Positions 4,966 to 26,841 are shown, counted from the stretch's first letter. The stretch is DNA of 64,000 nucleotides from an uncultured Ignavibacteriaceae bacterium (GCA_964581115.1 CAZOMY010000006.1:314-64313), one strand, 5' to 3'. The notes: generated from the letters alone by a model not told the origin. Numbers and translations: made by a program.

Positions 4966-6417
4966 ATGGCTTCGGCTGATATCGGTCTCGTCGGTCTCGC
5001 CGTGATGGGCGAGAACCTCGTCCTCAACATGGAAAGTAAAGGGTTCACCGTGGCCGTCTACAACCGGACGGTTGAAAAGGTGGACCAATTCATGAATGGC
5101 CGCGGCAAGGGAAAGAGATTCGTCGCCGCCCACTCGATCGCGGAGCTGGTGGCGGCGCTCAAGCGACCCCGCAAGGTGATGCTGATGGTCAAAGCGGGCA
5201 AGCCGGTCGATGAGTTTATCGAGTTGCTCCGGCCGCATCTGGAGCCGGGTGATATCATCATCGACGGTGGCAACAGCCACTTCCCCGACACGATCCGCCG
5301 GACGAAGGCGTTGGAACAGGGCGGTCTTCTCTACATCGGCACCGGAGTCTCCGGTGGCGAAGAGGGGGCGCTCCTCGGTCCCTCGATCATGCCGGGCGGT
5401 TCGGAGGCGGCCTGGCCGCACGTGAAGCCCATCTTCCAGGCGATCGCCGCGAAGGTGGCCGACGGTACACCGTGTTGCGACTGGGTTGGAGCCGACGGCG
5501 CCGGTCATTTCGTCAAGATGGTCCACAACGGCATCGAGTACGGCGATATGCAGCTCATCGCCGAATCGTATTTCATGATGAAGGAACTGCTCGGACTCTC
5601 GGCCGACGAGATGCACGCTGTTTTCGCCGAGTGGAACAAGGGGGAGCTCGACAGTTACCTGATCGAGATCACGCGCGACATCCTCGGCACGAAGGACGCC
5701 GACGGTTCGCCGCTCGTGGAGAGGATCCTCGACACGGCCGGACAGAAGGGGACCGGGAAGTGGACAGGTGTCGCGGCGCTCGACCTCGGCATTCCGCTGA
5801 CGCTGATCGGCGAGGCGGTCTTCGCCCGCTGCTTGTCGGCGATGAAAGAAGAGCGGGTGAAGGCTTCGAAGATCCTTTCCGGACCCGCGCCGCAGTTCAA
5901 GGGCGACCGGAAAGCTTTTGTGGCCGACCTCGAGAAGGCGCTCTACGCGTCAAAGCTCGTTTCGTACGCGCAGGGCTATATGCTGATGCAAGAGGCCGCC
6001 AAGGAGCATGGATGGAAGCTCAACTACGGCGGTATCGCCCTCCTCTGGCGCGGCGGATGCATCATCCGGTCGGCCTTCCTGGGCAAGATCAAGGAGGCGT
6101 TCGATCGGCAGTCCGACCTGAGCAATCTTCTGTTCGACCCGTTCTTCCAGAAGAAAATGGCCGACGCGCAGGCTGCGTGGCGGCGCGTCGTGTCGACGGC
6201 CGTGGAGAACGGATTGTGGATCCCGGCGCACGCAACGGCGCTCGCGTTCTACGACGGGCTCCGCAATGGACGGTTGCCGGCGAACCTGTTGCAGGCCCAG
6301 CGCGACTACTTTGGAGCGCATCAGTACGAGCGCACCGACGAGCCGCGCGGGAAGTTCTTCCACACGAACTGGACCGGCCGCGGCGGCGCGACGGCGTCGT
6401 CAACGTATACTGTTTAG
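4966..6417 (+). CDS. gnd: 6-phosphogluconate dehydrogenase, decarboxylating
   Basis: 483 aa. N-terminal ADIGLVGLAVMGENLVLNMESKGFTVAVYNRT is the canonical Gnd NADP-binding region, with full-length similarity to Gnd. Confidence 0.95.
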   Translation: MASADIGLVGLAVMGENLVLNMESKGFTVAVYNRTVEKVDQFMNGRGKGKRFVAAHSIAELVAALKRPRKVMLMVKAGKPVDEFIELLRPHLEPGDIIIDGGNSHFPDTIRRTKALEQGGLLYIGTGVSGGEEGALLGPSIMPGGSEAAWPHVKPIFQAIAAKVADGTPCCDWVGADGAGHFVKMVHNGIEYGDMQLIAESYFMMKELLGLSADEMHAVFAEWNKGELDSYLIEITRDILGTKDADGSPLVERILDTAGQKGTGKWTGVAALDLGIPLTLIGEAVFARCLSAMKEERVKASKILSGPAPQFKGDRKAFVADLEKALYASKLVSYAQGYMLMQEAAKEHGWKLNYGGIALLWRGGCIIRSAFLGKIKEAFDRQSDLSNLLFDPFFQKKMADAQAAWRRVVSTAVENGLWIPAHATALAFYDGLRNGRLPANLLQAQRDYFGAHQYERTDEPRGKFFHTNWTGRGGATASSTYTV

Positions 6418-6538
6418 AAGCGAACTCACGCAATGTCGCTAAGGCGCAAGGACAATGTCTCTTTCCGCCTGGAACTCTTCGTTGCGCCATTGCGTCGTGG
6501 CGTGATGTCTTCGTCCTAAGGATGCGGCAGGACCTCTT

Positions 6539-7690
6539 GTGAAGCTAGTCATCGTTGCTGACCAGAACATTCCATTCGTCGCGGAGATGTACGCCGGAGT
6601 GGCTGACCTGCGCTCCGTCGACGGCCATGCGATCACGCCGGCGGCTGTGCGGGATGCGGACATTCTCCTCGTCCGATCGGTGACGCCGGTGACGCGAGAG
6701 TTGCTCGACGGAAGTCGCGTTCGGTTTGTGGGAACGGCGACGATCGGCCACGATCATGTCGACCGGGTCTATCTGGACGAGCGCGGCATCGCCTTTGTCA
6801 GCGCTCCCGGCAGCAACGCCAACTCGGTCTCGGAATATGTGACCGCGGCCCTCCTCGAAGCGGCCGATCGGTTGGGTTGGACGCTGAGAGGCAAGACGAT
6901 CGGGGTCATCGGCGTCGGAAACGTCGGCCGTCGCGTGGTGCAGAAGGCCGAGGCCCTTGGACTGAAGGTCCTGAAGAATGACCCTCCCGTACAACGAGCG
7001 ACGGGAGACGCGTCGTACGTCACGCTCGACGAAGCTCTGACCGCCGATATCGTCACGTGCCACGTGCCGCTCACGCGCACGGGTGAGGACGCGACGCATC
7101 ATCTGATCAACGCCGAGCGCATGTTGCGAATGCGGCCGGGTGCGCTTCTGCTGAACTCATCGCGGGGAGCTGTCGTCGACGGCTCGGCACTCAAGGCGAA
7201 TATTCGCTCGGGACGCTTGTCGGCGATCCTGGATGTCTGGGAAGGGGAACCGAAGATCGACGCAGAACTCCTCGAAGAGGTGCTGGTCGGAACGCCTCAC
7301 ATCGCGGGTTATTCAACGGAGGGCAAGACGAACGGCTCGATCATGCTCTACGAGGCCGTGTGCCGGTATCTGGGCATTTCGGCGACGTGGAGTGTCGACG
7401 GGAAACTGCCGCCCCCCGAACATGCGTCGATCGTCCCGGAGGGGAGCGACGACGAATCCCGACTGCGTTCGGTGATCCGTAAGGCGTATCCGATCATACG
7501 AGACGACGCCCGGCTTCGCGAGATGCTGACGATGGATCCCGACAAGCGCGCCGAACATTTCAAGCGGCTCCGTTCGCACTATCCGGTCCGCCGCGAATTC
7601 CCAGCTGTTGAAGTCATCATCGGACACAACCGTCCGCCTCTTTCCGGCGTGCTGCACAGACTGGGTTTCAAGGTCGTGAGCGTCCCGTGA
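6539..7690 (+). CDS. pdxB: Erythronate-4-phosphate dehydrogenase
   Basis: 383 aa, GTG start. Aligns along its length with E. coli PdxB (VRSVTPV, FVGTATIGHDHVD, GVIGVGNVGRR, LDVWEGEP, HIAGYS). It includes the PdxB-specific C-terminal dimerisation domain (FKRLRSHYPVRREF). Confidence 0.85.
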   Translation: MKLVIVADQNIPFVAEMYAGVADLRSVDGHAITPAAVRDADILLVRSVTPVTRELLDGSRVRFVGTATIGHDHVDRVYLDERGIAFVSAPGSNANSVSEYVTAALLEAADRLGWTLRGKTIGVIGVGNVGRRVVQKAEALGLKVLKNDPPVQRATGDASYVTLDEALTADIVTCHVPLTRTGEDATHHLINAERMLRMRPGALLLNSSRGAVVDGSALKANIRSGRLSAILDVWEGEPKIDAELLEEVLVGTPHIAGYSTEGKTNGSIMLYEAVCRYLGISATWSVDGKLPPPEHASIVPEGSDDESRLRSVIRKAYPIIRDDARLREMLTMDPDKRAEHFKRLRSHYPVRREFPAVEVIIGHNRPPLSGVLHRLGFKVVSVP

Positions 7691-7694
7691 GCTC

Positions 7695-9020
7695 ATGCCG
7701 TCGAATGATCTCTCAACTTCATTCATTTTCTTTGCGTTCTTTGCGGCAATCACCTTCCCCATGATCGGCACCGGCTCACCCGATAACCTCCTCACGGACG
7801 ACCAGGTCCGCGACATCTGCGCCTCGTTCGTCGATGCGCACCAGCTGGCCGGCAAACGCGTGCTCGGGATCATTCCCGATCATACGCGATCGGCGCCGAT
7901 CGATCTGATGTTCCGAACGCTCTACGACCTCCTCGGCCGCGGCAACGGTGCATTCGACCTCCTCATTGCGCTCGGCACGCATCCGCCCATGTCAGAAAGC
8001 GCGATCGACAAGCGGCTCGGTCTTGCTCCGGGAGAGCGGGCATCGAAGTTCGGCCGAACGAAGGTCGTCAATCACGCATGGGACGACCCTGCTCAGCTGC
8101 GGAGGATCGGGTCCTTCAGCGGCGATCGGATCGCGGAGTTGAGCGAAGGTCTTCTGCGCGAATCGGTCGACATCACGATCAACAAGCTGGTCTTCGACTA
8201 TGACGTCGTGCTCATCATCGGCCCGACGTTTCCGCACGAGGTCGTCGGCTTCTCGGGAGGCAACAAGTATCTCTTCCCCGGCATATCAGGCCGGGAGATC
8301 ATCGACCTGTTCCACTGGCTCGGAGCGCTCATCACGAACCCGCGCATCATCGGCAAGAAGTGGACGCCCGTGCGGGCCGTGGTCGACGCATCAGCGGCGC
8401 TCCTCTCGGTTCCGCGGCTCTGCCTCAGCATGGTCGTGGACCGGCACGAACTGGCGGGTCTCTACGGGGGAACGCCGGAGGAAGCGTGGTCGGCCGCCGC
8501 CGACCTCTCCGATCGTATCCACATCGTCTATAAGGACCGTGCGTACTCGAGCGTTCTATCGTGCGCTCCGACGATGTACGACGAATTGTGGGTGGGGGGC
8601 AAATGCGCCTACAAGCTGGAGCCGGTGGTCGCCGACGGTGGCGAGCTGATCATCTATGCCCCGCACATCGACGAGATCTCGGTCACGCACGGCACGCTCA
8701 TTCGAAAGATCGGCTACCACGTGCGCGACTATTTCACGGCGCAGGCCGACCGTTTCGCCGGCATCCCGAAAGGCGTGCTGGCCCATTCCACGCATGTCAA
8801 GGGCATCGGATCCTACCGCGACGGACACGAAGAGCCTCGCATCCGCGTGACGCTTGCCACCGGCATCCCGGAGGAGGTCTGTCGAGCCATCAATCTTGGC
8901 TATCGCGACCCGCAATCGATCGACCCGATCGCGTGGATGGCGAAGGAAGAGCAGGGTTTCCTGCACGTGCCGAAGGCCGGAGAGATCCTCTACCGTCTGA
9001 CGAACGACCCATTTCACTGA
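7695..9020 (+). CDS. LarA-family protein (nickel-pincer-dependent lactate racemase-like 2-hydroxyacid racemase/epimerase; DUF2088)
   Basis: 441 aa. LarA motifs are conserved: PDHTRS (SDHTRP in LarA), ALGTHPPMSESA (ATGFHRPSTHEE), and GFSGGNKYLFPGISG (GFSGGRKSVLPGIAS, containing the NPN-tethering Lys). The N-terminal 22 aa are low-complexity, so the true start may be ATG at 7761 (MIGTGSP). Confidence 0.75.
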   Translation: MPSNDLSTSFIFFAFFAAITFPMIGTGSPDNLLTDDQVRDICASFVDAHQLAGKRVLGIIPDHTRSAPIDLMFRTLYDLLGRGNGAFDLLIALGTHPPMSESAIDKRLGLAPGERASKFGRTKVVNHAWDDPAQLRRIGSFSGDRIAELSEGLLRESVDITINKLVFDYDVVLIIGPTFPHEVVGFSGGNKYLFPGISGREIIDLFHWLGALITNPRIIGKKWTPVRAVVDASAALLSVPRLCLSMVVDRHELAGLYGGTPEEAWSAAADLSDRIHIVYKDRAYSSVLSCAPTMYDELWVGGKCAYKLEPVVADGGELIIYAPHIDEISVTHGTLIRKIGYHVRDYFTAQADRFAGIPKGVLAHSTHVKGIGSYRDGHEEPRIRVTLATGIPEEVCRAINLGYRDPQSIDPIAWMAKEEQGFLHVPKAGEILYRLTNDPFH

Positions 9021-9032
9021 TCAGGAGTCACC

Positions 9033-10115
9033 ATGGCGTCAACGTTTTCCATCCCCACAACCGGAGAGCTCGACCTCGTCAGTCTCGGCGCGCTCGTTCA
9101 TCGGCTTGACCCCGGCGTCATCCCGTTCCGGAAGGCGACGCACTGTGCCATTCATGTCAGCGGCGGCGAGTTCAACGTGGCTGCCAACCTGGCCGACTGC
9201 TTCCGGTTGAAGACGGGGATCGTAACGGCGATGGTAGACTATCCGATCGGCGACCTCATTGCGGAGCGTGTGCGGGCGATGGGTGTCCGACCGTTCTACA
9301 AGCGGTACGTGCACAATGGCGTGAACGGACCGAATATGGCAACAGTCTACAGCGATCAGGGATTCGGCGTGCGGGCGCCGGTCGTCTTCTACAATCGTTC
9401 AAACGAAGCCGCCGCACTGCTGAAGCCGGGCGACATCGACTGGAAAGAGGTCTTTGCGGGTGGCGTGCGGTGGTTCCACAGCGGCGGCATCTTTGCGGCC
9501 CTCTCGGCGACGACGGGCGAACTGATCGTGGAAGGGATGAAGGCAGCCAAGGCGGCGGGGGCCGTGACGAGTTTCGACCTGAATTTTCGAGCAAAGCTTT
9601 GGAACATTTGGGGAGGCGAAAAGAAGGCCGTGGAGGTCGTTGCCCGCATCGTAGAGCACGTCGACGTTCTCGTCGGCAACGAAGAGGACCTGCAGAAGGG
9701 CCTCGGCATCCCCGGCCCTGAGGTGGCCGCGAAGTCTGAACTCGATCCCTCGGCCTTCCTGGCGATGATGGACTCGGTCGTTAAGAAGTATCCGAAGGTC
9801 AAAGCGGTCGCAACGACCCTCCGCGAGGTCCACAGCACGAATCGCCATCGCTGGAGCGCCGTGGCGTGGGTCGAAGGGAAGGCCTATCGGGCACCGACCT
9901 GCGATCTGGACGTCATCGATCGCGTGGGCGGCGGTGACGGCTTCGCGGCGGGATTCATCTACGGCTTGCTCGCTGGCGAGTCGCCCGAGACGGCCATCAA
10001 GCTGGGCTGGGCACACGGCGCGCTCCTGACGACGTTCCCCGGCGACACGACGATGGCGACCGTCGAGCAGGTCAAGGCGTTCGCGGCGGGCGGCTCGGCG
10101 AGAATTCAGCGGTGA
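9033..10115 (+). CDS. PfkB-family sugar kinase, 2-dehydro-3-deoxygluconokinase (KdgK)-like
   Basis: 360 aa. Ribokinase/PfkB fold with the C-terminal signature DRVGGGDGFAAGFIYGLL. Lies between the larA-like gene and kduI. Substrate not determinable from sequence. Confidence 0.7.
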   Translation: MASTFSIPTTGELDLVSLGALVHRLDPGVIPFRKATHCAIHVSGGEFNVAANLADCFRLKTGIVTAMVDYPIGDLIAERVRAMGVRPFYKRYVHNGVNGPNMATVYSDQGFGVRAPVVFYNRSNEAAALLKPGDIDWKEVFAGGVRWFHSGGIFAALSATTGELIVEGMKAAKAAGAVTSFDLNFRAKLWNIWGGEKKAVEVVARIVEHVDVLVGNEEDLQKGLGIPGPEVAAKSELDPSAFLAMMDSVVKKYPKVKAVATTLREVHSTNRHRWSAVAWVEGKAYRAPTCDLDVIDRVGGGDGFAAGFIYGLLAGESPETAIKLGWAHGALLTTFPGDTTMATVEQVKAFAAGGSARIQR

Positions 10116-10221
10116 GAATTTTGCACCGCAATGACGCAGCGGCGCGAAGGCAAATGATCAAATCACGTTGCGCCTTCGCGTCTCTGCGGTGTATATCTTC
10201 TCTTTCGATCGAGGTGCTTTC

Positions 10222-11055
10222 ATGGAAGTCCGCTTTCTCCCCGACCCCGCGACCACGCGTCGCATGACCACCCAGGAGCTGCGCGAGCGGTTCGTGTTCG
10301 ACCGTATCGCCGTCCCGGGCGAGATCCGCACGGTCTACGTCGACGCTGACCGGTCGATCATCGGCTTTGCGATCCCGACCACGGCGCCCCTCGATCTCAC
10401 GGCCAGCCGAACGGAGATGGCGGCCGATCATTTTCTCGAGCGCCGTGAGATGGGCATCGTCAACGTCGGGGGTGCCGGCGTTGTGATCGCCGACGGGAAG
10501 GAATTCGTCCTTGCAAAACGCGACATGGTCTACCTTGGTCGCGGCACGAAGGCGGTGTCGTTCAAGAGCGCCAACGGCTCGAATCCGGCGGCGTTCTTTT
10601 TCGTCTCGTATCCCGCACATCGGGAGTATCCATCGCGACTGATGACGTTCGCCGAATCCGCCGCCACGCCGCTCGGCACGCCGAGAGACGCAAACAAGCG
10701 GACCATTCACAAGTACATTCACGAAGCCGGCATTCCCAGTTGCCAATTGGTGATGGGGATGACGGTGCTGGAAGAGGGGAGTGTCTGGAACACGATGCCG
10801 GCGCATACGCATCTGCGCAGGTCGGAGGTCTACATGTACTTCGACGTCCCTGAAGACGGGATGGTCGTTCACTTGATGGGCGAGCCGACGGAGACGCGTC
10901 ACGTCATCCTCCATAACCGCCAGGCCGTGATCTCGCCTGTCTGGTCCATTCATGCGGGCGCCGCGACGCAGGCCTATTCCTTTATCTGGGCCATGGGCGG
11001 AGAGAACCAGGCGTTCGATGATATGGATAAAGTTGCCGTGAGAGATCTGAAGTAG
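10222..11055 (+). CDS. kduI: 5-dehydro-4-deoxy-D-glucuronate isomerase
   Basis: ORF 10168-11055; ATG at 10222 (MEVRFLP). Strong full-length similarity to E. coli KduI (FLERRELGVINIGGAG, NLWNTMPCHTHERRMEVY, NEQAVISPSWSIHSG, ENQVFDDMDHVAVKDL). Confidence 0.9.
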   Translation: MEVRFLPDPATTRRMTTQELRERFVFDRIAVPGEIRTVYVDADRSIIGFAIPTTAPLDLTASRTEMAADHFLERREMGIVNVGGAGVVIADGKEFVLAKRDMVYLGRGTKAVSFKSANGSNPAAFFFVSYPAHREYPSRLMTFAESAATPLGTPRDANKRTIHKYIHEAGIPSCQLVMGMTVLEEGSVWNTMPAHTHLRRSEVYMYFDVPEDGMVVHLMGEPTETRHVILHNRQAVISPVWSIHAGAATQAYSFIWAMGGENQAFDDMDKVAVRDLK

Positions 11056-11239
11056 TAAGCAGTAAGCAGGTACAGTCAGGTTGTAGGCAGGCTGAGGTCC
11101 AATGACAAAGAACAAATGATCTTTCTTCTCGGGCTTCTGTCTGACCGTACCTGATGGTTTCTGAATACTGCCTGCTCCCATTCGCCTTCACGAGATTTCT
11201 CTTGTCTATTCAGCGCACCTGACAGCCCCGGGAGCCACC

Positions 11240-12658
11240 ATGGCCACCAAGAAACTCACCCTGCACCGCGACCGCTACCTCGACGCCAACCCGGCCGTGC
11301 GCAAGATCGCGCGCGAACTCTATCATTCCGTCAAGAAACTGCCGATCATCAGCCCGCATGGGCACGTCGACCCGGCCCTCTTCTCAAAGAACAAGCCTTT
11401 CCCGGATCCGGCGCAACTGTTCATCGTGCCGGACCATTATATCTTCCGGATGCTCCACGCGCAGGGGATCCCTCTCGAGCGCATGGGCGTGCCGACTCGC
11501 GATGGCTCGCCGACGGAGACCGACGGCCGCAAGATCTGGCAACTCTTCGCTGAGAACTATCACCTGTTCCGGGGTACGCCGTCGGGGGCATGGCTCGATG
11601 CCGAACTGGTCGATGTGCTTGGAGTGAAGGAGAAGCTGAACGGCAAGAACGCCCAGAGGATCTACGACTTCATCCAAGCAAAGCTCGAGACCAAGGAGTT
11701 CCGTCCGCGCGCCCTGTTCCAGCGTTTCAATATTGAGGTGCTGGCAACGACCGACGCCGCGACGGATACGCTTGACCATCACATAGCGATGCGTGCATCC
11801 GGTTGGAAGGGGCGCGTCATTCCCACTTTCCGACCAGACGGCCTGACGAACCTGCTCGATGCGGCTTGGAGCGCGAACGTAAAGCGCTTGGGCGAGCTGG
11901 TCGGGCATGAGATCACGACCATGCGTGCGTTCATCGCTGCCCTCGAGTCGCGCCGCGTCTTCTTCAAGTCGATGGGGGCCGTGGCTACCGATCATGGAGT
12001 GCAGAGTCCATACGTGCATCAGCTGTCGGAGCGGGAGGCCGACGACATTCTCGGAAGGGCGTTGAAAGGACTGGCCACCGCTCAGGATGCGGCCCAATTC
12101 ACGGCGCACATGCTGATGGAGATGGCACGCATGAGCAGCGAGGACGGCCTCGTCATGCAGCTCCATGCCGGCGCTCTGCGCAATCACCATACGGGCATCT
12201 TCCGGCGGTTCGGTCCCGACAAGGGCTTCGACATTCCAGCTCCGACGGAGTACGTGTCGAACCTTCGCGAGCTGACGGAGAAGTTCGGCAATCACCCGAG
12301 CTTGAAGATTATCCTCTTCACCCTCGACGAGACGACGTATGCGCGCGAACTCGCCCCGCTCGCGGGGGTCTATCCGGCCCTCTTGGTCGGTCCGGCCTGG
12401 TGGTTTCACGACAGCATCGAGGGGATGGTCCGCTACCGCGCGAACATCATGGAGACGGCCGGTCTCTATAACACCGCCGGATTCAATGACGACACGCGGG
12501 CGTTCTTGTCGATCCCGGCCCGGCACGACCTCTCCCGTCGCATGGATGCGAATTGGGTTGCTTCCCTCATGGCCCGGCATCTCGTGAGCAAGTCCGAAGG
12601 CCTCGAGATGATGTATGAGCTGGCGAACGGATTGGTGAAGAAGGCGTACGGATTATAG
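11240..12658 (+). CDS. uxaC: Glucuronate isomerase
   Basis: 472 aa. The N-terminal LPIISPHGHVDPALF and overall length match UxaC. A 184-bp AT-richer leader with repeats lies upstream. Confidence 0.95.
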   Translation: MATKKLTLHRDRYLDANPAVRKIARELYHSVKKLPIISPHGHVDPALFSKNKPFPDPAQLFIVPDHYIFRMLHAQGIPLERMGVPTRDGSPTETDGRKIWQLFAENYHLFRGTPSGAWLDAELVDVLGVKEKLNGKNAQRIYDFIQAKLETKEFRPRALFQRFNIEVLATTDAATDTLDHHIAMRASGWKGRVIPTFRPDGLTNLLDAAWSANVKRLGELVGHEITTMRAFIAALESRRVFFKSMGAVATDHGVQSPYVHQLSEREADDILGRALKGLATAQDAAQFTAHMLMEMARMSSEDGLVMQLHAGALRNHHTGIFRRFGPDKGFDIPAPTEYVSNLRELTEKFGNHPSLKIILFTLDETTYARELAPLAGVYPALLVGPAWWFHDSIEGMVRYRANIMETAGLYNTAGFNDDTRAFLSIPARHDLSRRMDANWVASLMARHLVSKSEGLEMMYELANGLVKKAYGL

Positions 12659-18218: not shown

Positions 18219-19418
18219 ATGAAGATCCTGATCGCCGACGCATTTCCGCCACGCGCCCTGACGCGCCTCTCGGAATTGGGCTGCGACGTTGACTACCGTC
18301 CCAAACTCACGTCTGATGAGCTCGCCGGTGCGGTCGGCGACGCATCCATCCTGATCGTCCGCTCGACGGAGGTCCCGAAGGCGTGCATCGACGCCGGACG
18401 CATGCTCAGCCTCATCATCCGCGCGGGGGCCGGCGTCAACACGATCGACATCAAGGCGGCGAACGCCCGGGGCATCTACGTGTCGAACTGTCCGGGCAAG
18501 AACGCCATCGCGGTCGCCGAGTTGACCATGGGACTGCTCCTAGCCGTCGACCGACGGATCCCGGACAACGTTGCCGACCTGCGGGCCGGACGATGGAACA
18601 AAGGGGAATATTCGAAAGCGGAAGGGCTGTGCGGAAAGACCATGGGCATCGTCGGAGCGGGCCAGATCGGACGCGAGGTCGTGGTGCGCGCCAGGGCCTT
18701 CGGACTCAAGGTCGTGGTCTGGTCGAGGTCGATCACGGCGGAAGAGGCGGAACGCCTCGGCGTGTCGCGTGCGACGTCGTTGGAGGATCTGCTGGCCCGT
18801 TGCGACATCATCTCGCTGCACGTCGCGTTGACGCCCGAGACCCGCGGGATGATCAGTCGGGAGGCGGTGGCGAGAATGAAGCCGGGCACGATCCTGCTGA
18901 ATGCGGCGCGTGCCGAAGTGGTTGATGAGGCGGCGGTGCTCGAGGCGGTCGAAGCCGGTCGCTTGCGCTACGGAACAGACGTTTTCTCCGGCGAGCCGGA
19001 GGAGAAATCAGGACCGTTCGTGAGCCGACTGGCGCAACTGCCGGGCGTGGTCGGCACCCACCACATCGGTGCGTCGACGGAGCAGGCGCAGGACGCGGTG
19101 GCCGATGAGGTGGTACGGATCGTCGACCGCTACCGACGGTTCGGTGAGGTTCTCAACTGGGTCAACCGCCAGCGTACGTCCGCGGCAACATGGCAGCTCG
19201 TCGTCAGGCACTACGACCGACCAGGCGTGCTGGCCAACGTGCTGTCGGAACTGAAGACGGCCGGCATCAACGTGCAGGAAGTGGAGAACGTGGTGTTTGA
19301 AGGGGCGCTGACCGCCTGCTGTACGTTGCGCCTCAACGCACGTCCGGCGCCGGGCGTCATGGACGCTATAGCGGCAAGGAGGGACGAAGTGATCAGCGTG
19401 CTGCTCAGCCCGTTGTGA
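18219..19418 (+). CDS. D-isomer-specific 2-hydroxyacid dehydrogenase, D-3-phosphoglycerate dehydrogenase (SerA)-like with C-terminal ACT-like domain
   Basis: ORF 18186-19418; ATG at 18219 (MKILIADA). NAD-binding GIVGAGQIGREV. Catalytic region ILLNAARAEVVDEAA and HIGASTEQAQ. The C-terminal roughly 80 aa are ACT-like (VVRHYDRPGVLANVLSELKTAGINV). Confidence 0.8.
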   Translation: MKILIADAFPPRALTRLSELGCDVDYRPKLTSDELAGAVGDASILIVRSTEVPKACIDAGRMLSLIIRAGAGVNTIDIKAANARGIYVSNCPGKNAIAVAELTMGLLLAVDRRIPDNVADLRAGRWNKGEYSKAEGLCGKTMGIVGAGQIGREVVVRARAFGLKVVVWSRSITAEEAERLGVSRATSLEDLLARCDIISLHVALTPETRGMISREAVARMKPGTILLNAARAEVVDEAAVLEAVEAGRLRYGTDVFSGEPEEKSGPFVSRLAQLPGVVGTHHIGASTEQAQDAVADEVVRIVDRYRRFGEVLNWVNRQRTSAATWQLVVRHYDRPGVLANVLSELKTAGINVQEVENVVFEGALTACCTLRLNARPAPGVMDAIAARRDEVISVLLSPL

Positions 19419-21186
19419 ACAGGTCAGCCGTCGTTGACGGCGACCCGGCAGGATCCAACGGAAGGGAGAGCGTGAACGTCGCTCCCCCGTTGACGATGGA
19501 GTGCGCGCTGATGTCTCCGCCGTGACGCTCGAGGATGCGCCGCACGATGGCGAGACCGATGCCCGTACCCTCGAATTCCTCCCCCGTGTGCAGGCGCTGG
19601 AAGAGCCCGAAGAGCTTCGAGGCGTACTGCATGTCAAACCCCGCCCCGTTGTCCTCCACTTCGATCGTACACCATCCTTCCTTCGACGGACCAGGACCGA
19701 CCCGAATGCGAGCCACCTCGCAGCGTCGCGTGAACTTCAGCGCGTTCCCCAGCAGGTTCACGATCACTTGACGCATCAATCCCTCGTCGGCTGTCACCGT
19801 CGGAAGGTCCCCGACGGTCCACTCCACCTTCCTACCGAGCGTCTCGGGTTCAAGTTCGTCGATGACGCTGCGCGTCAGCGTCACGAGATCCACGGGCTGG
19901 CGCTGCACCTGCGATCGATTGACCCTTGACAGGCTGAGCAGATCGTCGATGAGGGCGGCCATGCGACGCGCCGATCGTTCAATGGTTTCGATGTACCGGT
20001 GCGGACCGTCTCCCAGCCGGGCACCCGTTTCGTCGCGAAGCATGGCCAGGTAGCCCAGCACGTGCCGCAACGGAGCGCGGAGGTCATGCGATACGGAATA
20101 CGCAAATGCCTCCAGTTCTTCGTTCGCTGCCGTCAGCGCGCGCGTGCGGTCCTGCACCCGCGCCTCGAGCTTCACGTTGAGCTCCTTCACCGCCTCTTCC
20201 GCGCGGATACGCTCGGAGATGTCGATCACGATGGCCGTCACCGACTGCAACGTTCCGTCACGGACGAGAGGACTGAAATGCAGTTCATACCAACGCTGGC
20301 CGTCGGCTCCGAGCCGGAGCGCCCGGCAGCTGGAGGGCGCTCGACGTTCGAGACAGCGCTCGAAGGTCAGCATGACGTCGCCGGCTGTTACGGGTTCGAA
20401 GAATGAGACCACGGGTCGGCCTGCTTCGTCAAAGGCGTTCCGTTGGCGCCCGTCGGCCCGCTCGACGATTCCCGTGGGTCGAATGGTGAGGATGGCCCCG
20501 GGAAGGTTCTCCACGAGGCAGCGCCACCGTGATTCTGACTCGACCAGCTCTGCCGAACGGGCCAACAGTTCCTGCCGATGTCTCAGCAACTCTTCGCGTT
20601 GTTGCGAGAGCCGCTCAAGCGTTCGATGCAGGTTGTGCGACAGAATGGTTCCGGCCAGAGTGGCGATGCCGATGATGAGGATGACGGCGATGACCTCGAC
20701 CCAGGTGATCTCGGGATCCTTCAAGGCCTGATACCAGCCCAGCGTTTCCGCCAAGGGAATCGACGTAGCGATCGCAATGGTCAGCAACGCGATCGCGATG
20801 AAGGCCCGCCCCTGCAACAAGAGTGCAGCCGTCATGACCACGATGGGATACAAGAGAAAGGCGATGTCGCGGACCCCGCCACCGTTCACGGTCAGAAAGG
20901 TCGTCACGCCCAGCAGTGAGCCGAGGAGGACGGCACTGGCCGTTGTCGGGTGGCCGCGCCGCGCCAACCAAAGCCCTCCGCCAAGAACTGTCGCCGCGGC
21001 GATCAGGGCCAACGTCCGTTCGCGGCCGATGAGCGAATGCATGACGACGGCAGCCAGGAGCGCCGCGCCGATGAGAACCACGAATGCGGCCTGGAGCGGC
21101 TTGGAGTTCTCGTGGCCGTCAGGGGAGGTGGAAAGGGGTCGAGATAACGATGCTTCGCCCAACATGCCGTTCTGCTCGTACCGCAT
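19405..21186 (-). CDS. Sensor histidine kinase (multi-TM N-terminal sensor, PAS, HisKA, HATPase_c); orphan
   Basis: 593 aa. The N-terminal about 190 aa hold several TM helices. H-box SVSHDLRAPLRHV. G-boxes DNGAGFD and GTGIGLAIVRRILERHGG. No response regulator in the window. The 3' end overlaps the serA-like stop convergently by 14 nt. Confidence 0.85.
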   Translation of the reverse strand: MRYEQNGMLGEASLSRPLSTSPDGHENSKPLQAAFVVLIGAALLAAVVMHSLIGRERTLALIAAATVLGGGLWLARRGHPTTASAVLLGSLLGVTTFLTVNGGGVRDIAFLLYPIVVMTAALLLQGRAFIAIALLTIAIATSIPLAETLGWYQALKDPEITWVEVIAVILIIGIATLAGTILSHNLHRTLERLSQQREELLRHRQELLARSAELVESESRWRCLVENLPGAILTIRPTGIVERADGRQRNAFDEAGRPVVSFFEPVTAGDVMLTFERCLERRAPSSCRALRLGADGQRWYELHFSPLVRDGTLQSVTAIVIDISERIRAEEAVKELNVKLEARVQDRTRALTAANEELEAFAYSVSHDLRAPLRHVLGYLAMLRDETGARLGDGPHRYIETIERSARRMAALIDDLLSLSRVNRSQVQRQPVDLVTLTRSVIDELEPETLGRKVEWTVGDLPTVTADEGLMRQVIVNLLGNALKFTRRCEVARIRVGPGPSKEGWCTIEVEDNGAGFDMQYASKLFGLFQRLHTGEEFEGTGIGLAIVRRILERHGGDISAHSIVNGGATFTLSLPLDPAGSPSTTADLFTTG

Positions 21187-21474
21187 CTTGCAACAGATTC
21201 TGGATAGGAGATCGCACTAGAATAGTCAATGGACAATGAACGCGCAAGGTGGGCGTTCTTACCGTGTTGCAATGGTCGACCGATTCGCACGATTGACAAC
21301 GGGTGGGGCGGACACGTTGCTTCTCAACGGTTTTTGTCGGAAGATTCATTCAAGACCGCGCTTGCCCAGCGCCGGCGCCGGCCTGCTCTCCACCCCACAC
21401 GTCGCGTTCCCCGCCGCCGGCAACCTGCATCGTGACCGGCGGTCCGGGGTCGTCGCCACCCCATCGAGGATTGC

Positions 21475-21717
21475 ATGGAAAGGTCTGAGATCCAGCAGCG
21501 TGTCCGCAGCGTCGTGGCATCCGTCCTGAACATCGACCCCAACGAGATCACCCCTGCCTCCAATTTTGTCTTCGACCTGGGCGCCGATTCGATGAAGAGC
21601 GTTGAACTCATCGCCGGATTCGAGGAGGAGTTCAACATCGAGATGGACGAGGACAAGGCCCGCGAAGTCCAGACCGTCGAAGGGGCGGTCGACTTCATCG
21701 CGCAATACCTGCGCTGA
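21475..21717 (+). CDS. Acyl carrier protein-like (phosphopantetheine attachment site)
   Basis: 80 aa, acidic, four-helix ACP pattern. DLGADSMKSVEL matches the ACP D-S-L phosphopantetheinylation motif. Lies 27 nt upstream of the acyl-CoA synthetase gene. Confidence 0.7.
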   Translation: MERSEIQQRVRSVVASVLNIDPNEITPASNFVFDLGADSMKSVELIAGFEEEFNIEMDEDKAREVQTVEGAVDFIAQYLR

Positions 21718-21744
21718 CCCTGACCCTTCATTGCCGGAGGCACC

Positions 21745-23877
21745 ATGTCCGATCCTGTCGGCAGGGGCCCGGAACGTCTGGACCCCATCATTGCGCCGCG
21801 CTCGGTCGCGGTCGTCGGCACAACGCGCGTTGCCGGTACCGTTCCGTACGATCTCTTCGCCAATCTGTTGCGCGACCGCTTTGAGGGGACGCTGTACCCG
21901 GTGAGCCCCAAGGAACGCTCCATCGCGGGCGTCAAGGCCTACAAGTACGTGCTGGATATTCCCGATCCCGTCGATCTGGCCGTCATTGTCTTTCCGAGCA
22001 GCGTCGTCAACCTGGCGCTCGAGCAGTGCGGGCAGAAGGGGATCAAAGGGGTCGTCATCATCAGCGCCGGGTTCAGGGAGGTCGGTCCCGCCGGCGCAAA
22101 GCGCGAAGAGGAGATCAAGCAGATCGCGGCCAAGTACGGGATCTCATTCATCGGCCCCAACTGCCTCGGCCTCATCAACACCGATCCGTGTGTCAGATTG
22201 AATGCGTCGTTCGCGCGACGCATGCCGCGCGAAGGGTCGATCGGCTTCTTGTCGCAGAGTGGGGCGCTCTGCACGGCGGTGCTCGACTATGCCCACGCCA
22301 AGAACATCGGCTTCTCGAAGTTCATCTCGTTCGGGAACAAGGCCGACGTCAGCGACATCGACCTGATGATGTACCTGAAAGACGACCCGGCGACGAAGGT
22401 CATCCTGATGTATCTGGAGGAAATGACCGCCGGTGCGCGGTTCGTCGAAGCGGCCCGCCGCGTCATCCATGAAGCGGGCAAGCCAGTCCTGGTCTTGAAA
22501 TCAGGCCGGACGACGGAAGGTGCGTCGGCGGCGGCGTCGCACACCGGTTCGCTGGCCGCCAGCGACGAGATCGTCGACGCGGCGCTGATGCAGGCCGGCG
22601 TCATCCGATGCACGACGATCGAGGAGATGTTCAACAACGCCATTGCGCTCGCCTACCAACCCCTTCCGAAGGGGCGTCGGGTAGCGATCATAACGAATGC
22701 CGGCGGACCGGGGGTGCTGACGACCGATGCGGCGATCCACGAAGGACTGCAGCTGGCCGGATTTTCGGAGGCCACGCGCGAGATCTTCAAGCGCTCGCTG
22801 CCGGTGACGGCCAACATGAAGAACCCGGTCGACGTCATTGGCGATGCGCGCGCCGACCGCTATCGCGTGGCGCTCGGGGCCGCCCTCGCCGACCAGAACG
22901 TCGACGGTGCTCTCGTCATCCTTACGCCGCAATCGATGACCGACATCGATACGATCGCGACCGAGGTCTGCAATGTCGCGGGGGGCTTCGACAAGCCGAC
23001 CTACGCGTCGTTCATGGGCGAGACCGACGTCGCCTCGGGCATCGCGATCCTCCAGAGTCGCAACATCCCTCACTACATCCTGCCGGAATCGATGTGCCGC
23101 GCGTTCGCGCGGGCTGACGACTTCCGCTACGAGCGCGACCATCCGCACGCGCCGGTACCGGTCTTTGACGACGTTGACACGGCGAAGGCGAATGCCATTC
23201 TGGAAGCGGCGAGGTCCGCCGGCAGAAACTACCTGCCGCAATCGGAGGCGTTCGAGGTGCTCGCGGCCTACGGATTGCCGACGCTCGCCGGCCGGATCGC
23301 GACGTCGGCCAACGAAGCGGCACAGATCGCGCTCGAGGTCGGCTTTCCCATCGCCCTCAAGGTCGAATCGGACGACATCATCCACAAATGGGATGTCGGC
23401 GGCGTACTGCTAAATGTCGCCTCGGCGGACGAAGCGGCGAAGGGCTACGAGGCCGTGGTCGCGAACGCCGCCGCCGCGATGCCGAAGGCCCGCCTGAAGG
23501 GCGTCTACGTCCAGCGGATGTCGGGCACGGGCGAAGAGGTCATCCTCGGCGTCAAGCGCGACCCGGCGTTCGGTCCGGTGGTCCTGTTCGGCCTCGGAGG
23601 CATCTTCGTCGAGGTCTTCCGCGACGTCAGCTTCCGCATCGCGCCGCTTCCGCCGGATGTTGTGCGCGATATGATGCAGCGCATCAAGGCGTATCGACTG
23701 CTCACCGGGGCTCGCGGACGTCCCGTGCGCGACGTCGATGCTGTGGCTCAGTGCCTCCAGCGCCTGTCGCAGCTGGCGGTTGAATGTCCGCTGATCCGCG
23801 AACTCGATATCAATCCGCTCATCGTCGGGAACGCCGGCCAGGGCTGCTCCGTGGCCGACGCCCGGATCCTACTCTGA
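21745..23877 (+). CDS. ADP-forming acyl-CoA synthetase (NDP-forming; fused alpha/beta: CoA-binding, succinyl-CoA-ligase-like and ATP-grasp domains)
   Basis: 710 aa. N-terminal CoA-binding Rossmann [19 protein letters not shown]. Central ligase-CoA domain [23 protein letters not shown] with the phospho-His region. C-terminal ATP-grasp ([21 protein letters not shown]). No GNAT domain, so it is not Pat-type. Confidence 0.75.
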
Positions 23878-23896
23878 CCCATCGGAGGTTCCAACC

Positions 23897-24703
23897 ATGC
23901 GCATCATCATTCACGACAGCTACGATGCCCTCAGCAAATGGACCGCGCACTACATCGCGTCCAAGATCAACGCGTTCAAACCGACAAAGGACCGGCCCTA
24001 CGTGCTCGGCCTCCCGACGGGCTCATCCCCCATCGGAACGTATCAGAACCTCGTCAGCCTGCACCAACAGGGAAAGGTCTCGTTCAAGAACGTCATCACC
24101 TTCAACATGGACGAGTATGTCGGCCTGCCCGAGGATCATCCCGAGAGCTATCACTACTTCATGTGGCACCATCTGTTCAGCCACATCGATATCCCGCACG
24201 AAAACGTCAACATCCTCAACGGCAACGCGAAGGACCTCGAGAAGGAGTGCTCGGACTACGAGGAGCGCATCCGCAAGACCGGCGGCATCCATCTCTTCCT
24301 CGGCGGCATCGGGCCGGACGGACACATCGCCTTCAACGAACCGGGCTCGTCATTGTCGTCTCGCACGCGTATCAAGACGCTGACGATGGATACCCGCATC
24401 GCCAACTCGCGCTTCTTCGGCAACGACCCGAACAAGGTCCCCAAGACGGCCCTGACGGTCGGCGTAGGGACGGTCATGGACGCACAGGAGGTCGTCATCA
24501 TCGTGTCGGGCCACTCAAAGGCCCGCGCCTTGCAGAAGGTGGTGGAAGAAGGAGTGAATCACATGTGGACGGTGTCTCAGCTTCAGCTGCACCGCCACGG
24601 CATCATCGTCTGCGACGAGGCGTCGACCTACGAGCTCAAGGTCGGCACGGTCAAGTACTTCAAGGATATCGAAGGCGATAACTTGAGGATCGCCGACCTG
24701 TAG
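23897..24703 (+). CDS. nagB: Glucosamine-6-phosphate deaminase
   Basis: 268 aa. Canonical NagB motifs [18 protein letters not shown] and [21 protein letters not shown]. Confidence 0.9.
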
Positions 24704-24715
24704 AGGAGCATCTCC

Positions 24716-26701
24716 ATGACCTTTCGATCGTTGACAGCCGACGAGGTCCGGCGGCTCGAACAGCAGGGATGTCGTGCGGAGTCGTGGCAACGCGTGACGG
24801 TTCATCCCGACATCGCCGTCGACCGGGTCTGCGGCGTCGAATTCCGCGGCGACGTCCGGCTGGGAGACAATCGCGGTTCGGTCCTGGTGGAAGGCGTCGA
24901 GCTTCCGAGCGGTGTGTCATCGGCGATCCTGGCCGATGTTGAGGTCGGCGACGGTGTGCGCATCGACCGCATCGGATCGGTCGTCTCGAACGTGACGATC
25001 GGACCCGGGTGCGTCATTCAGGACGTGGCGGCAATCACCGCCGAGCCGGGTGCGGCTTGCGGCATCGGGACCGAGCTCGAAACGGTCAACGAAGGGGGAG
25101 GTCGTGTCGTTCGATTGACGCCGTCTCTGTCGGCGCAATCGGCGTATCTACAGGCTTTCCGTCTGCATGACCAGGCGGCGGCCGGCGCCATCGCCTCGTG
25201 CGTGGCAAGAACCGTCGACGAAGCGAAGAAAACGAAGGTCGTCGTCGAAGCGGGTGCCCAGCTCCTCCATTGCGGCCCGATCCGAAACGTGCGGATCGGC
25301 CCCAAGGCGATCCTCCGCGGCGTTGCTGCGCTCGAAGATGGCACGATCCTGAGCTGTCCGGAACATCCGACGATCCTTGGGGAGGGCGTCAGCGCGAAGC
25401 ACTTCATCATCGCCGAGGGGGCTGCCGTCGGGTCCGGTGTCATTCTCGATAAGGCGTTCGTCGGGCAGGCGGTGAAGCTTGGCAAGCAGTTCTCGGCTGA
25501 GAACAGCCTCTTCTTTGCCAACAGCGAAGGATTCCATGGCGAGGCCGTTTCGATGTTCGGCGGGCCGTACACCGTCACCCACCACAAGTCCACCCTCCTG
25601 ATTGCGGCGCAGTTCTCCTTCTACAATGCCGGTTCGGGGACGAACCAAAGCAACCATATGTACAAACTGGGCCCGGTGCATCAGGGGGTGTTCGAGCGTG
25701 GTTGCAAGACCGGGTCGTTCTCGTACGTCCTGCATGAGACGCACGTCGGGGCCTTCAGCGTCATCATCGGCAAGCACTATACGAACATCAACACCCCCGA
25801 CCTGCCGTTCGCGTACATCCACGAATCCGAAGGCGAGTCTCAGATCGTTCCTGGCATGAACCTCTTCTCGGTCGGGACGGTGCGTGACGGAGAGAAGTGG
25901 CCGAAGCGCGACGGCCGCAAGGCGCCGGTCAAGCGTGACCGGATCGTGTTCGACGTGTTCTCGCCGTACACGGTCGAGAAGATGCGGCGGGGACGAGACC
26001 TCCTGTTGAAGCTGCACGAAAGCACGCCAAAGGAAAAGCACTCGGTGGCGGTGGGGGGGGTGATCGTGAAGCGACTGTTGCTGCGACGATGCGCAAAGTA
26101 CTACTCGAACGCCATCGCTCGCTATTTGAATGGAGCTGTCCTGGCGCGCATCGAGGCGGCCGCGGCTGCGACGTCGTGGATGGAGGTGCGGAAGGCCCTC
26201 GGGGCACCGTCGTCGTTGAAGGAGCCGTTCGTCTGGACCGACGTTGCCGGACTCCTCATACCGGTGGAGCGTCTGCGGGGATTGGAAGCGCGCTTGGCCG
26301 GCGGAACGATCACCGGCGAAGCGGGGCTCGAGGCCGCGTTTGACGAGATCGCCGCGTCGTACCGCTCCGACGAGTGGGAATATGTCGCCGCGGCGTTCGA
26401 GTCCGAATACCGGGTCCGTCCGGAATCGATGACGAAAGAGCAGGCGCTGGAAACCGCAAAGGGGTATTTCGACGCCGCGTCGTCTCTGCTTGGAATGATC
26501 CTTGAGGATTCGAAGCGCGAATTCGATGCGTTCGCGCGCATCAGCTATGGACTCGGGATGACCGAGGAGGAACGTGCACAGGAATTCGCTTCTGTCCGTG
26601 GCAGCGCCGAGACGAATGGCGTTGTGCAGAAGCTGGTGAAGGAAAAGGCAGAGCTGGAGGCCAGGAAGGCAACGCTGGTGGCGATGATCGATCGGTTGTA
26701 G
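24716..26701 (+). CDS. DUF4954-family protein with N-terminal left-handed beta-helix (hexapeptide-repeat-like) region
   Basis: 661 aa. The N-terminal roughly 300 aa have imperfect hexapeptide-like repeats (GVEFRGDVRLGDNRGSVLVEGVELPSGVSSAILADVEVGDGVRI...). The nagB-DUF4954 pairing is conserved in Bacteroidota. Function unknown. Confidence 0.6.
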   Translation: MTFRSLTADEVRRLEQQGCRAESWQRVTVHPDIAVDRVCGVEFRGDVRLGDNRGSVLVEGVELPSGVSSAILADVEVGDGVRIDRIGSVVSNVTIGPGCVIQDVAAITAEPGAACGIGTELETVNEGGGRVVRLTPSLSAQSAYLQAFRLHDQAAAGAIASCVARTVDEAKKTKVVVEAGAQLLHCGPIRNVRIGPKAILRGVAALEDGTILSCPEHPTILGEGVSAKHFIIAEGAAVGSGVILDKAFVGQAVKLGKQFSAENSLFFANSEGFHGEAVSMFGGPYTVTHHKSTLLIAAQFSFYNAGSGTNQSNHMYKLGPVHQGVFERGCKTGSFSYVLHETHVGAFSVIIGKHYTNINTPDLPFAYIHESEGESQIVPGMNLFSVGTVRDGEKWPKRDGRKAPVKRDRIVFDVFSPYTVEKMRRGRDLLLKLHESTPKEKHSVAVGGVIVKRLLLRRCAKYYSNAIARYLNGAVLARIEAAAAATSWMEVRKALGAPSSLKEPFVWTDVAGLLIPVERLRGLEARLAGGTITGEAGLEAAFDEIAASYRSDEWEYVAAAFESEYRVRPESMTKEQALETAKGYFDAASSLLGMILEDSKREFDAFARISYGLGMTEEERAQEFASVRGSAETNGVVQKLVKEKAELEARKATLVAMIDRL

Positions 26702-26841
26702 CTATTGCGAGCATCGCCAGAGTCGCCAGTGGTTTCGGATCTTGCATTTTCTGCGTTCGGCGCCCTTGGCGCTTCATTGCTTTCCTTCGGTCTTGGCGTT
26801 CTTGGCGGTCAGATTCGGGATTTCTCGAGCGACGTTCAATG

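Follow-up and report, generated by a model that had tools for sequence, protein, structure and literature searches.

Why would a free-standing acyl carrier protein (ACP) be encoded beside an ADP-forming acyl-CoA synthetase and genes linked to amino sugars, rather than among fab or pks genes? The question is raised by a 64,000-nt stretch of DNA from an uncultured Ignavibacteriaceae bacterium (GCA_964581115.1, CAZOMY010000006.1:314-64313), hereafter called the window. In it, four genes lie head to tail on the + strand and encode an ACP, a fused alpha-beta ADP-forming acetyl/acyl-CoA synthetase (ACD), NagB and a protein with DUF4954 and DUF6819 domains. The original prediction, drawn from the DNA of the window alone, had delimited these four open reading frames (ORFs) and the 27-nt spacing between the ACP and ACD genes, and both proved exact (Table 1). 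We conclude that the cassette is genuine, occurs widely and has no description in the literature searched; its parts come from known families, while their combination is new. Most likely, it transfers acetyl between acetate and the phosphates of amino sugars.

Conservation of the cassette and its two modules

One genome per GTDB species was scanned with an alignment of ACD homologues, which yielded 80 loci whose gene order was read by tblastn with the four window proteins. Most of them carry the four genes with order and strand unchanged. This first set was picked through ACD; a second one was obtained by scanning metagenome contigs with a DUF4954 alignment and by direct homologue look-up. Among the 166 loci collected, 64 display the colinear ACP-ACD-NagB-DUF4954 organization and 10 more ACP-ACD-DUF4954, with median gaps of 42–58 nt. 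The taxa concerned include Gemmatimonadota, Bacteroidota (Bacteroidales, Cytophagales, Balneolaceae), Ignavibacteria, Calditrichota, Spirochaetota, Sumerlaeota, Neomarinimicrobiota and KSB1; the cassette is also present in a metagenome-assembled genome (MAG) labeled Planctomycetales and, without NagB, in Omnitrophota. Cohesion of these genes in at least eight bacterial phyla is far beyond what a chance neighborhood would give. Clustering of neighboring ORFs indicated wide conservation of these four genes alone, the surroundings varying from locus to locus, and the wider neighborhoods of the Spirochaetota and Calditrichota loci held no consistent additional genes.

Co-occurrence was counted in well-flanked loci, i.e., those with at least 4 kb on both sides. 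Around ACD (44 loci), ACP was found in 41, DUF4954 in 38 and NagB in 32. Around DUF4954 (25 loci, within 5 kb), we found NagB in 21, ACP in 18 (72%), ACD in 10, phosphotransacetylase (Pta) in seven, acetate kinase (AckA) in six and an HMGL-like enzyme, described below, in two. The ACP-ACD and NagB-DUF4954 pairings, on whose conservation the original prediction depended, are thus kept in relatives (41/44 and 21/25, respectively). An ACD, Pta/AckA or HMGL-like gene accompanies 18 of the 18 ACP-bearing DUF4954-anchored loci and none of the seven ACP-less ones (Fisher's exact p ~2e-6, calculated on loci that are phylogenetically non-independent). It is therefore the acetyl-thioester enzyme, and not DUF4954/NagB as such, that the ACP follows. 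Since NagB-DUF4954 also occurs without ACP and ACD, we regard the cassette as two coupled modules and not as one obligate four-gene unit.

Table 1. Coordinates of the cassette genes and of other features in the window and in related loci (numbers with the prefix L).
Feature	Position	Strand	Remarks
ACP gene	21475-21717	+	80 aa; S39 in GADSM; PF00550, TIGR00517
ACD gene	21745-23877	+	710 aa; fused alpha-beta ADP-forming acetyl/acyl-CoA synthetase; domain matches
NagB gene	23897-24703	+	268 aa; glucosamine-6-phosphate deaminase; TIGR00502
DUF4954+DUF6819 gene	24716-26701	+	661 aa; PF16314, PF20683
DUF4954 residues 275-356	25538-25783		pLDDT <50
Intergenic region	21187-21474		between divergent kinase gene and ACP gene; presumed cassette promoter/regulatory region
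PAS/HisKA histidine-kinase gene	19405-21186	-	divergent from ACP gene
Weak terminator-like hairpin	26759-26783	+	58 nt past DUF4954 stop
Polysaccharide-utilization region	34865-56000
Block resembling hexuronate/pectin catabolism	4966-12658
HMGL-like genes	L069:8548-9942; L009:9210-10622; L087:5246-6649; L090:7251-8657
Paired Planctomycete ACP genes	L069:8176-8415 and 12119-12358; L077:6394-6624 and 10567-10803
Divergent DUF4954 paralogues	L089:1871-3913; L104:19516-21180; L106:18628-20679; L142:6861-8867	- (L089)	23-38% identity to window protein
NagB/LmbE fusions (examples)	L016:1022-3376; L023:15993-18347; L104:12934-15288		770-784 aa
Amidase_2-like protein (example)	L145:6962-7570	-	~200 aa
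AMP-binding ligase and IspD-like fragments	L087:11541-13193		looks frameshifted

The acyl carrier protein and the ADP-forming synthetase

The ACP matches PF00550 with E=1e-14 (54.8 bits, cutoff 20.8) and passes the general AcpP model TIGR00517 (83 bits, cutoff 70.45), yet it stays under the cutoffs of the specific AcpP equivalogs (NF002151, 81 vs 92; NF002149, 76 vs 106). The 79 cassette ACPs share the signature F-x-F-DLGA(D/E)S-x-x-S-x-EL...FEEEF-x-IEMDE, with the serine present in every one. In the window protein this is S39 of GADSM, the predicted phosphopantetheine attachment site, within the D-S-(L/M) motif that opens helix II of such proteins. The intact DSM phosphopantetheinylation site ascribed earlier to the 80-aa ACP is thus borne out at the level of sequence. 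No gene for a phosphopantetheinyl transferase was found within the cassette. The distance of this ACP from fab and pks genes, already remarked upon for the window, extends to its relatives: fab genes are lacking among the neighbors in the 166 loci, and neither type belongs to the conserved neighbors. A mis-called small ORF was also considered and set aside in view of conservation at 52–86% identity together with the intact serine. Some Planctomycete cassettes carry two distinct ACPs (L069 and L077), one after the GlmU-like gene described below and the other after ACD; both have a GAES motif in place of GADS.

As for the ACD, its CoA_binding, Succ_CoA_lig, Ligase_CoA_2 and ATP-grasp_5 domains all score above the Pfam cutoffs and no GNAT domain was matched in Pfam, in agreement with its first description as a 710-aa NDP-forming synthetase devoid of GNAT. 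H266 (ASHTGS, alpha part) and H547 (HKWD, beta part) are invariant in a 20-sequence alignment, the homologues being 63–91% identical to the window protein; we take them to be the catalytic histidines by analogy with the mechanism of Ca. Korarchaeum ACD1. Because GNAT is missing and these histidines are kept, the protein is an ACD of the synthetase type, and a Pat-type protein lysine acetyltransferase or regulator was ruled out on the lack of GNAT. The ACD-like region of Pat-type acetyltransferases is homologous to the cassette ACD (345 bits to 9isq), but Pat has the GNAT domain that the latter does not. The protein lies below every NCBIfam equivalog cutoff (TIGR02717, 532 vs 567; NF045493, 681 vs 1300). 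Among solved structures it is closest to that of an ADP-forming 4-hydroxybutyrate-CoA ligase, 8wzu (574 bits), and it matches the alpha and beta subunits of 4xyl with 298 + 197 bits. Similar to the characterized ACDs of Pyrococcus, Ca. Korarchaeum, Entamoeba and Nitrosopumilus (8wzu), it retains the same five-domain architecture and both histidines; in contrast to them, it is accompanied by a dedicated ACP, a feature not described for those enzymes. Since ACD adjoins such an ACP in 41/44 loci, its thiol acceptor may be the ACP.

Interchangeable partners and the nature of the acyl group

In 9–10 loci (L112, L114, L117, L118, L122, L125, L127, L132, L144), Pta and AckA are encoded in place of ACD, in the orders Pta-AckA-ACP-(GntR/UTRA regulator)-DUF4954-NagB and Pta-AckA-DUF4954-NagB-ACP. 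Both are bona fide enzymes: Pta matches PF01515 and TIGR00651 (325 bits vs cutoff 311), and AckA PF00871 and TIGR00016 (486 bits vs cutoff 293). Taken together, Pta and AckA perform the same net acetate/ATP/acetyl-thioester reaction as ACD. This non-orthologous displacement points to an acetyl group (C2), or at most propionyl (C3), as the acyl group handled by the cassette, and it indirectly supports acetate as the substrate of ACD.

A third type of partner is an HMGL-like DRE-TIM enzyme, resembling isopropylmalate synthase (IPMS) and homocitrate synthase, which is found beside the ACP. It is 464–468 aa long, 64–84% identical across phyla and far under every equivalog cutoff (best NCBIfam score 121 bits vs 463). 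It occurs together with ACD in L009, L011, L012, L069 and L077, and as the sole acetyl-thioester enzyme in about nine loci (L087, L090, L116, L131, L103, L155 and others). We know of no precedent for an ACP-associated Claisen-type DRE-TIM enzyme. One of these loci, L087, has the ACD-less organization HMGL-ACP-NagB-DUF4954 along with ROK, PFK, PIG-L and SIS genes; just downstream lie fragments of an AMP-binding (adenylate-forming) ligase and an IspD-like nucleotidyltransferase. This ligase could be an alternative loader of ACP or CoA.

The other module is subject to replacement as well. In Planctomycetota and an Elusimicrobia MAG, DUF4954 gives way to TIGR03991 (alt_bact_glmU; 304 bits vs 225), a protein composed of NTP_transf_4 and a left-handed beta-helix (LbH), which sits there with NagB, ACD and one or two ACPs. 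The order in L069 and L077 is NagB-altGlmU-ACP-HMGL-ACD-ACP. One Calditrichia locus, L017, has both, with a full cassette followed by a TIGR03991 gene. The original prediction had suggested acyl shuttling between CoA and the ACP, possibly coupled to amino-sugar acylation or deacylation. The link to amino-sugar acylation gains from the GlmU-like swap and from the fold matches described below, in which GlmU comes first; what changes is that the acyl group is narrowed to acetyl and the locus resolved into two modules.

These replacements bear on a more conventional explanation, namely that the ACP is an ordinary AcpP, DUF4954 an LpxA/LpxD-like transferase of long acyl chains from acyl-ACP onto an amino sugar, and ACD an unrelated neighbor. 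LpxD and LpxA do appear among the fold matches of DUF4954, the ACP does satisfy TIGR00517, and LpxD and NodA/NodF are precedents for acyl-ACP-dependent N-acylation of glucosamine. Nevertheless, we consider this explanation very improbable. None of the 166 loci contains fab genes, the ACP fails the specific AcpP cutoffs and bears its own conserved signature, two such ACPs occur in single Planctomycete loci, and the ACP co-varies perfectly with acetate/acetyl enzymes. Since the Pta-AckA displacement points to C2 (or C3), we set long-chain transfer aside.

NagB and the DUF4954 protein

NagB is of the E. coli-like 266–268 aa type and scores 439 bits against TIGR00502 (cutoff 237), covering residues 1–259 of the 259 of the model. 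Cassette NagB proteins are 66–88% identical between phyla. A NagA homologue was detected in only one of the 166 loci. In about 20 loci, the cassette is neighbored by a 770–784 aa fusion protein, NagB-like in its N-terminal part and LmbE/PIG-L-like, with an 'HTAPHHDD' motif, in its C-terminal part; its sole Pfam match was a weak one to Glucosamine_iso.

The DUF4954 protein matches PF16314 with E=1e-157 (525 bits), carries the C-terminal DUF6819 (93 bits) and shows faint Hexapep matches; no NCBIfam family was matched. It gave no match to the NTP_transferase domain and is therefore not a GlmU. The family comprises about 2,600 clusters at 50% identity. AlphaFold was run twice, with 37 and then 111 sequences, the latter run reaching pLDDT 82.5 and pTM 0.82. 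The model consists of an N-terminal cap, beta-helix coils at residues ~38–135 and 175–250, and a long helical C-terminal domain (DUF6819, 240 aa). Foldseek against PDB placed GlmU at all ranks 1–14 (E 2e-4 to 2.6e-3, with low TM-scores), while ranks 15–37 include LpxD, LpxA and other sugar N-acyltransferases. The N-terminal left-handed beta-helix like that of sugar N-acyltransferases, proposed beforehand, thus appears in the predicted structure. The wider expectation of an acyltransferase is upheld as far as the GlmU-like fold goes; no active site is visible in the model, in which the core 275–356 is unmodelled.

This core has pLDDT <50 in both AlphaFold runs (22–39) and is the sole unmodelled part of the protein. 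It is rich in Gly, Ser, Asn and His and nearly invariant among homologues of 37–100% identity, and may need oligomerization, a ligand or a metal in order to fold. It belongs to the most conserved portion of the protein, a His/Asn/Gly/Ser-rich core at residues ~250–400. Invariant residues include E262, N269, E271, H274, E276, H289, H290, N304 and G306, followed by S307, N310, S312, N313, H314, H322 and R328; C19, W24 and K353 are invariant in two alignments of database homologues. HHalign of DUF4954 with TIGR03991 proteins gave a weak match (E=3e-4, probability 38%), in which H290 and N304/G306/T309 fall in register with a His and the N-x-G-x-x-T coil of the TIGR03991 LbH. When DUF4954 is aligned to the E. 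coli GlmU sequence, H290 lies at the catalytic His363, which we treat as a lead. Single-sequence and profile searches of PDB returned marginal generic LbH matches, all with E >0.008, to eIF2B, ST0452, GlmU and gamma-carbonic anhydrase. On the basis of sequence and predicted fold, we propose that DUF4954 is a candidate amino-sugar-phosphate acetyltransferase.

Among the 150 best representatives, we found no informative case of DUF4954 being fused to ACP, NagB or a nucleotidyltransferase. One homologue (P0473) includes a Pol-beta-type nucleotidyltransferase stretch, probably a gene-calling fusion, and another (P0243, 832 aa) an exact internal duplication of ~170 residues, probably an assembly artefact. 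Some loci encode a second, divergent DUF4954 paralogue near the cassette copy (Table 1). In the literature searched, the name DUF4954 appears in only two papers, neither concerned with function; one of them lists such a gene adjoining lgt in Treponema pallidum (PMC6953169). The literature searched yielded no functional study of DUF4954 or of the cassette, and nothing linking ADP-forming synthetases to ACP or acetyl-ACP to glucosamine acetylation.

A beta-helix protein beside NagB need not be an enzyme of acetyl transfer. The cassette could comprise two chemically independent, merely co-regulated modules: NagB with DUF4954 as a regulatory, non-catalytic LbH partner or a hydrolytic deacetylase would handle amino sugars, and ACP with ACD or Pta-AckA would handle the acetate set free or formed, e.g., by making acetyl-ACP to prime fatty-acid synthesis. 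The LbH domains of eIF2B and of the sugar-nucleotidyltransferases GMPPA/B are non-catalytic, and DUF4954 has faint Pfam matches to both of these families. Its invariant core, rich in His, Glu and Asp, could bind metal, and each module also stands alone in some loci. Against this speak the association of two unrelated LbH families, DUF4954 and TIGR03991, with ACP-ACD in distant phyla and the 10 loci in which ACP-ACD-DUF4954 has no intervening NagB. In all three variants, the gene order sets the ACP between the acetyl enzyme and DUF4954. Moreover, co-regulation alone rarely keeps such tight colinearity over such a phylogenetic range. We thus judge independent modules unlikely; like the LpxD-like explanation, they are less consistent with the modular replacements.

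Proposed direction of acetyl flow

We return to the reading that we prefer, an anabolic acetyl relay. The first module would consist of the ACP and an acetyl-thioester enzyme (ACD, Pta-AckA or HMGL-like), the second of an LbH protein (DUF4954 or TIGR03991) and NagB, with acetyl as their common currency. ACD would activate acetate with ATP through its two conserved histidines and pass the acetyl group to a thiol, presumably that of the phosphopantetheine arm of the co-encoded ACP. The latter would take the place of CoA as a private, protein-borne thiol, charged directly or by way of acetyl-CoA. NagB interconverts fructose-6-phosphate plus NH4+ and glucosamine-6-phosphate (GlcN-6-P), and could supply GlcN-6-P. 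DUF4954 would then use the thioester to acetylate the amino group of GlcN-6-P (or GlcN-1-P), giving N-acetylglucosamine (GlcNAc)-phosphate, a precursor of UDP-GlcNAc. We infer the loading of ACP by ACD or Pta, the catalysis and substrate of DUF4954, and the anabolic direction. The complete scheme, from acetate and ATP through acetyl-ACP to N-acetylation of a NagB-linked glucosamine phosphate, is put forward tentatively, as the likeliest of the readings but at less than an even chance.

Five lines of evidence lead us to favor it: thermodynamics, fold chemistry, the TIGR03991 swap, retention in T. pallidum and an enzyme gap in Bacteroidetes. The scheme also draws on the colinearity kept in at least eight phyla, the Pta-AckA displacement, the co-occurrence of ACP with acetyl-thioester enzymes and the retention of both ACD histidines. 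Acetyl transfer from a thioester to an amine is strongly downhill. Retention of DUF4954 in the minimal genome of T. pallidum fits a housekeeping function in the envelope. As to the gap, Capnocytophaga canimorsus is without glucosamine-phosphate acetyltransferase activity (Renzi et al., 2015; PMC4358021), and 30 of the 45 Bacteroidetes genera possess a monofunctional GlcNAc-1-P uridylyltransferase alone, without any recognized glucosamine-phosphate acetyltransferase (PMC4358021).

Several observations weigh against this relay. Acetyl-CoA is ubiquitous, so that a private ACP and ACD lack an obvious selective rationale. HMGL-like enzymes, the sole acetyl-thioester enzymes of some loci, should consume acetyl thioesters and not make them. 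NagB of the E. coli-like type is normally catabolic, and about 25 loci have catabolic-looking neighbors: NagB-LmbE fusions, PIG-L, ROK kinases/regulators, SIS, PFK and a GntR/UTRA regulator. The profile similarity of DUF4954 to GlmU-like LbH proteins is weak, with low TM-scores in the fold comparison (E ~2e-4) as well, and because its conserved core is unmodelled, no active site is seen. Finally, the modules can be separated: the loci with NagB-DUF4954 and no ACP form one distinct DUF4954 clade, and ACD-ACP stands alone in some Planctomycetota (L074, L079, L080).

Part of this evidence would be accommodated if the relay ran in reverse, as a NagA-independent route conserving the energy and carbon of the N-acetyl group of GlcNAc-6-P. 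DUF4954 would move acetyl from GlcNAc-6-P to the ACP thiol, NagB would pull the reaction by removing GlcN-6-P, and acetyl-ACP would either yield ATP through ACD or Pta-AckA or serve the HMGL-like synthase for condensation with a 2-oxo acid. The ACP would thereby hold a low-potential acetyl pool insulated from the highly acetylated CoA pool of the cell. Such a route covers all four genes and the interchangeability of ACD, Pta-AckA and HMGL-like enzymes, all of which consume acetyl thioesters in their usual direction. It also accounts for the private ACP, the HMGL-like partner and the near absence of NagA, and is in line with the E. coli-like NagB and with the catabolic neighbors and NagC/NagR-type regulators in a minority of loci. 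By our estimate, the sum GlcNAc-6-P + ADP + Pi -> Fru-6-P + NH4+ + acetate + ATP can turn slightly exergonic when product concentrations are low. However, the amide-to-thioester transfer is uphill by ~20–30 kJ/mol, so the route requires very low GlcN-6-P and acetyl-ACP, a demand that is implausible for the kinetics of NagB. There is no known LbH enzyme that operates in reverse in this way, the protein that replaces DUF4954 (TIGR03991) has a sugar-nucleotidyltransferase domain and is thus anabolic, and DUF4954 is kept by T. pallidum, which is not known to use GlcNAc. We therefore regard the reversed relay as improbable, more so than independent modules, and retain the anabolic relay as our preferred, provisional scheme.

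Genomic surroundings

In the window, the cassette is flanked by unrelated genes encoding a chemoreceptor, a histidine kinase, a LOG-family protein and an aldo-keto reductase. No sigma-70 consensus site was found in the intergenic region upstream of the ACP gene, no Rfam families in the whole window, and the promoter/terminator scan revealed nothing exceeding the shuffled expectation. Terminator-like sites in the region are not more numerous than in shuffled sequence, so the hairpin behind the DUF4954 gene is suggestive only. Contigs identical to the window are present in three JGI metagenomes and one SRA run.

The polysaccharide-utilization region of the window encodes GH3, a LacI regulator, a CBM9/Por_Secre_tail protein, a TonB-dependent receptor, a PorV-like protein, GH94, two Glycoamylase-domain proteins and GH2, and indicates an FCB-group bacterium with type IX secretion. 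Another block, with genes for 6-phosphogluconate dehydrogenase, a 2-hydroxyacid dehydrogenase, a LarA-like protein (Lar_N), a PfkB kinase, KduI and UxaC, looks like hexuronate/pectin catabolism; the adjacency of its Lar_N and 2-hydroxyacid dehydrogenase genes is unusual.

Among related loci, the ACP-less DUF4954-NagB clade (L137, L141, L142, L145, L148, L149) has a divergent upstream gene for a ~200-aa protein with a weak match to Amidase_2 (N-acetylmuramoyl-L-alanine amidase), and a SurA-like peptidyl-prolyl isomerase gene downstream. This hints at a link of the clade to cell-wall turnover.

Comparison with known systems and significance

The left-handed beta-helix is common to DUF4954, the acetyltransferase domain of GlmU, the archaeal ST0452/MJ1101 and TIGR03991. 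DUF4954 partners NagB genomically just as TIGR03991 does, and the latter takes its place in Planctomycetota and Elusimicrobia. Unlike GlmU, with which its sequence similarity is marginal, DUF4954 has no nucleotidyltransferase domain and possesses its own 250–400 core and the helical DUF6819. Moreover, GlmU uses acetyl-CoA, whereas DUF4954 is tied genomically to an ACP. In this respect it recalls LpxA and LpxD, which are LbH proteins, and NodA with NodF, all of which transfer acyl groups from a carrier protein onto glucosamine derivatives, as proposed here for DUF4954. In LpxD, a helical C-terminal domain following the beta-helix docks the ACP (PDB 4ihf/4ihg, among the Foldseek matches), and DUF4954 has a helical C-terminus too. 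Yet LpxA, LpxD and NodA use long-chain acyl-ACP from fatty-acid synthesis and UDP-sugars or chito-oligosaccharides as acceptors, while in the cassette the acyl group would be acetyl derived from acetate and ATP, and the sugar a substrate or product of NagB.

CitC/CitD (acetate:HS-ACP ligase) and DltA/DltC provide a parallel for the first module: an ATP-dependent ligase loads a small group onto a dedicated carrier for a purpose other than fatty-acid synthesis, in the case of Dlt the modification of the cell envelope. In contrast to ACD, CitC and DltA are AMP-forming and of an unrelated fold, CitD bears a different prosthetic group, and neither system is tied to NagB or an LbH transferase.

With the cassette, the DUF4954 family gains a first functional context, as does an orphan subfamily of ACPs always encoded alongside acetate-activating enzymes. 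A role of DUF4954 as the glucosamine-phosphate acetyltransferase would close the gap reported for Bacteroidetes in 2015. It would also add a step of envelope-precursor synthesis that E. coli-type models do not include, and with it a possible drug target specific to lineages such as spirochaetes and Bacteroidota. Should the ACP indeed take the place of CoA in the ACD or Pta reaction, the cassette would provide the first example of an ADP-forming 'acetyl-ACP synthetase'. Were the reversed relay true instead, the cassette would draw substrate-level phosphorylation from an N-acetyl amide, for which no such reaction is known, and would constitute a new mode of energy conservation in the degradation of chitin and peptidoglycan in sediments.

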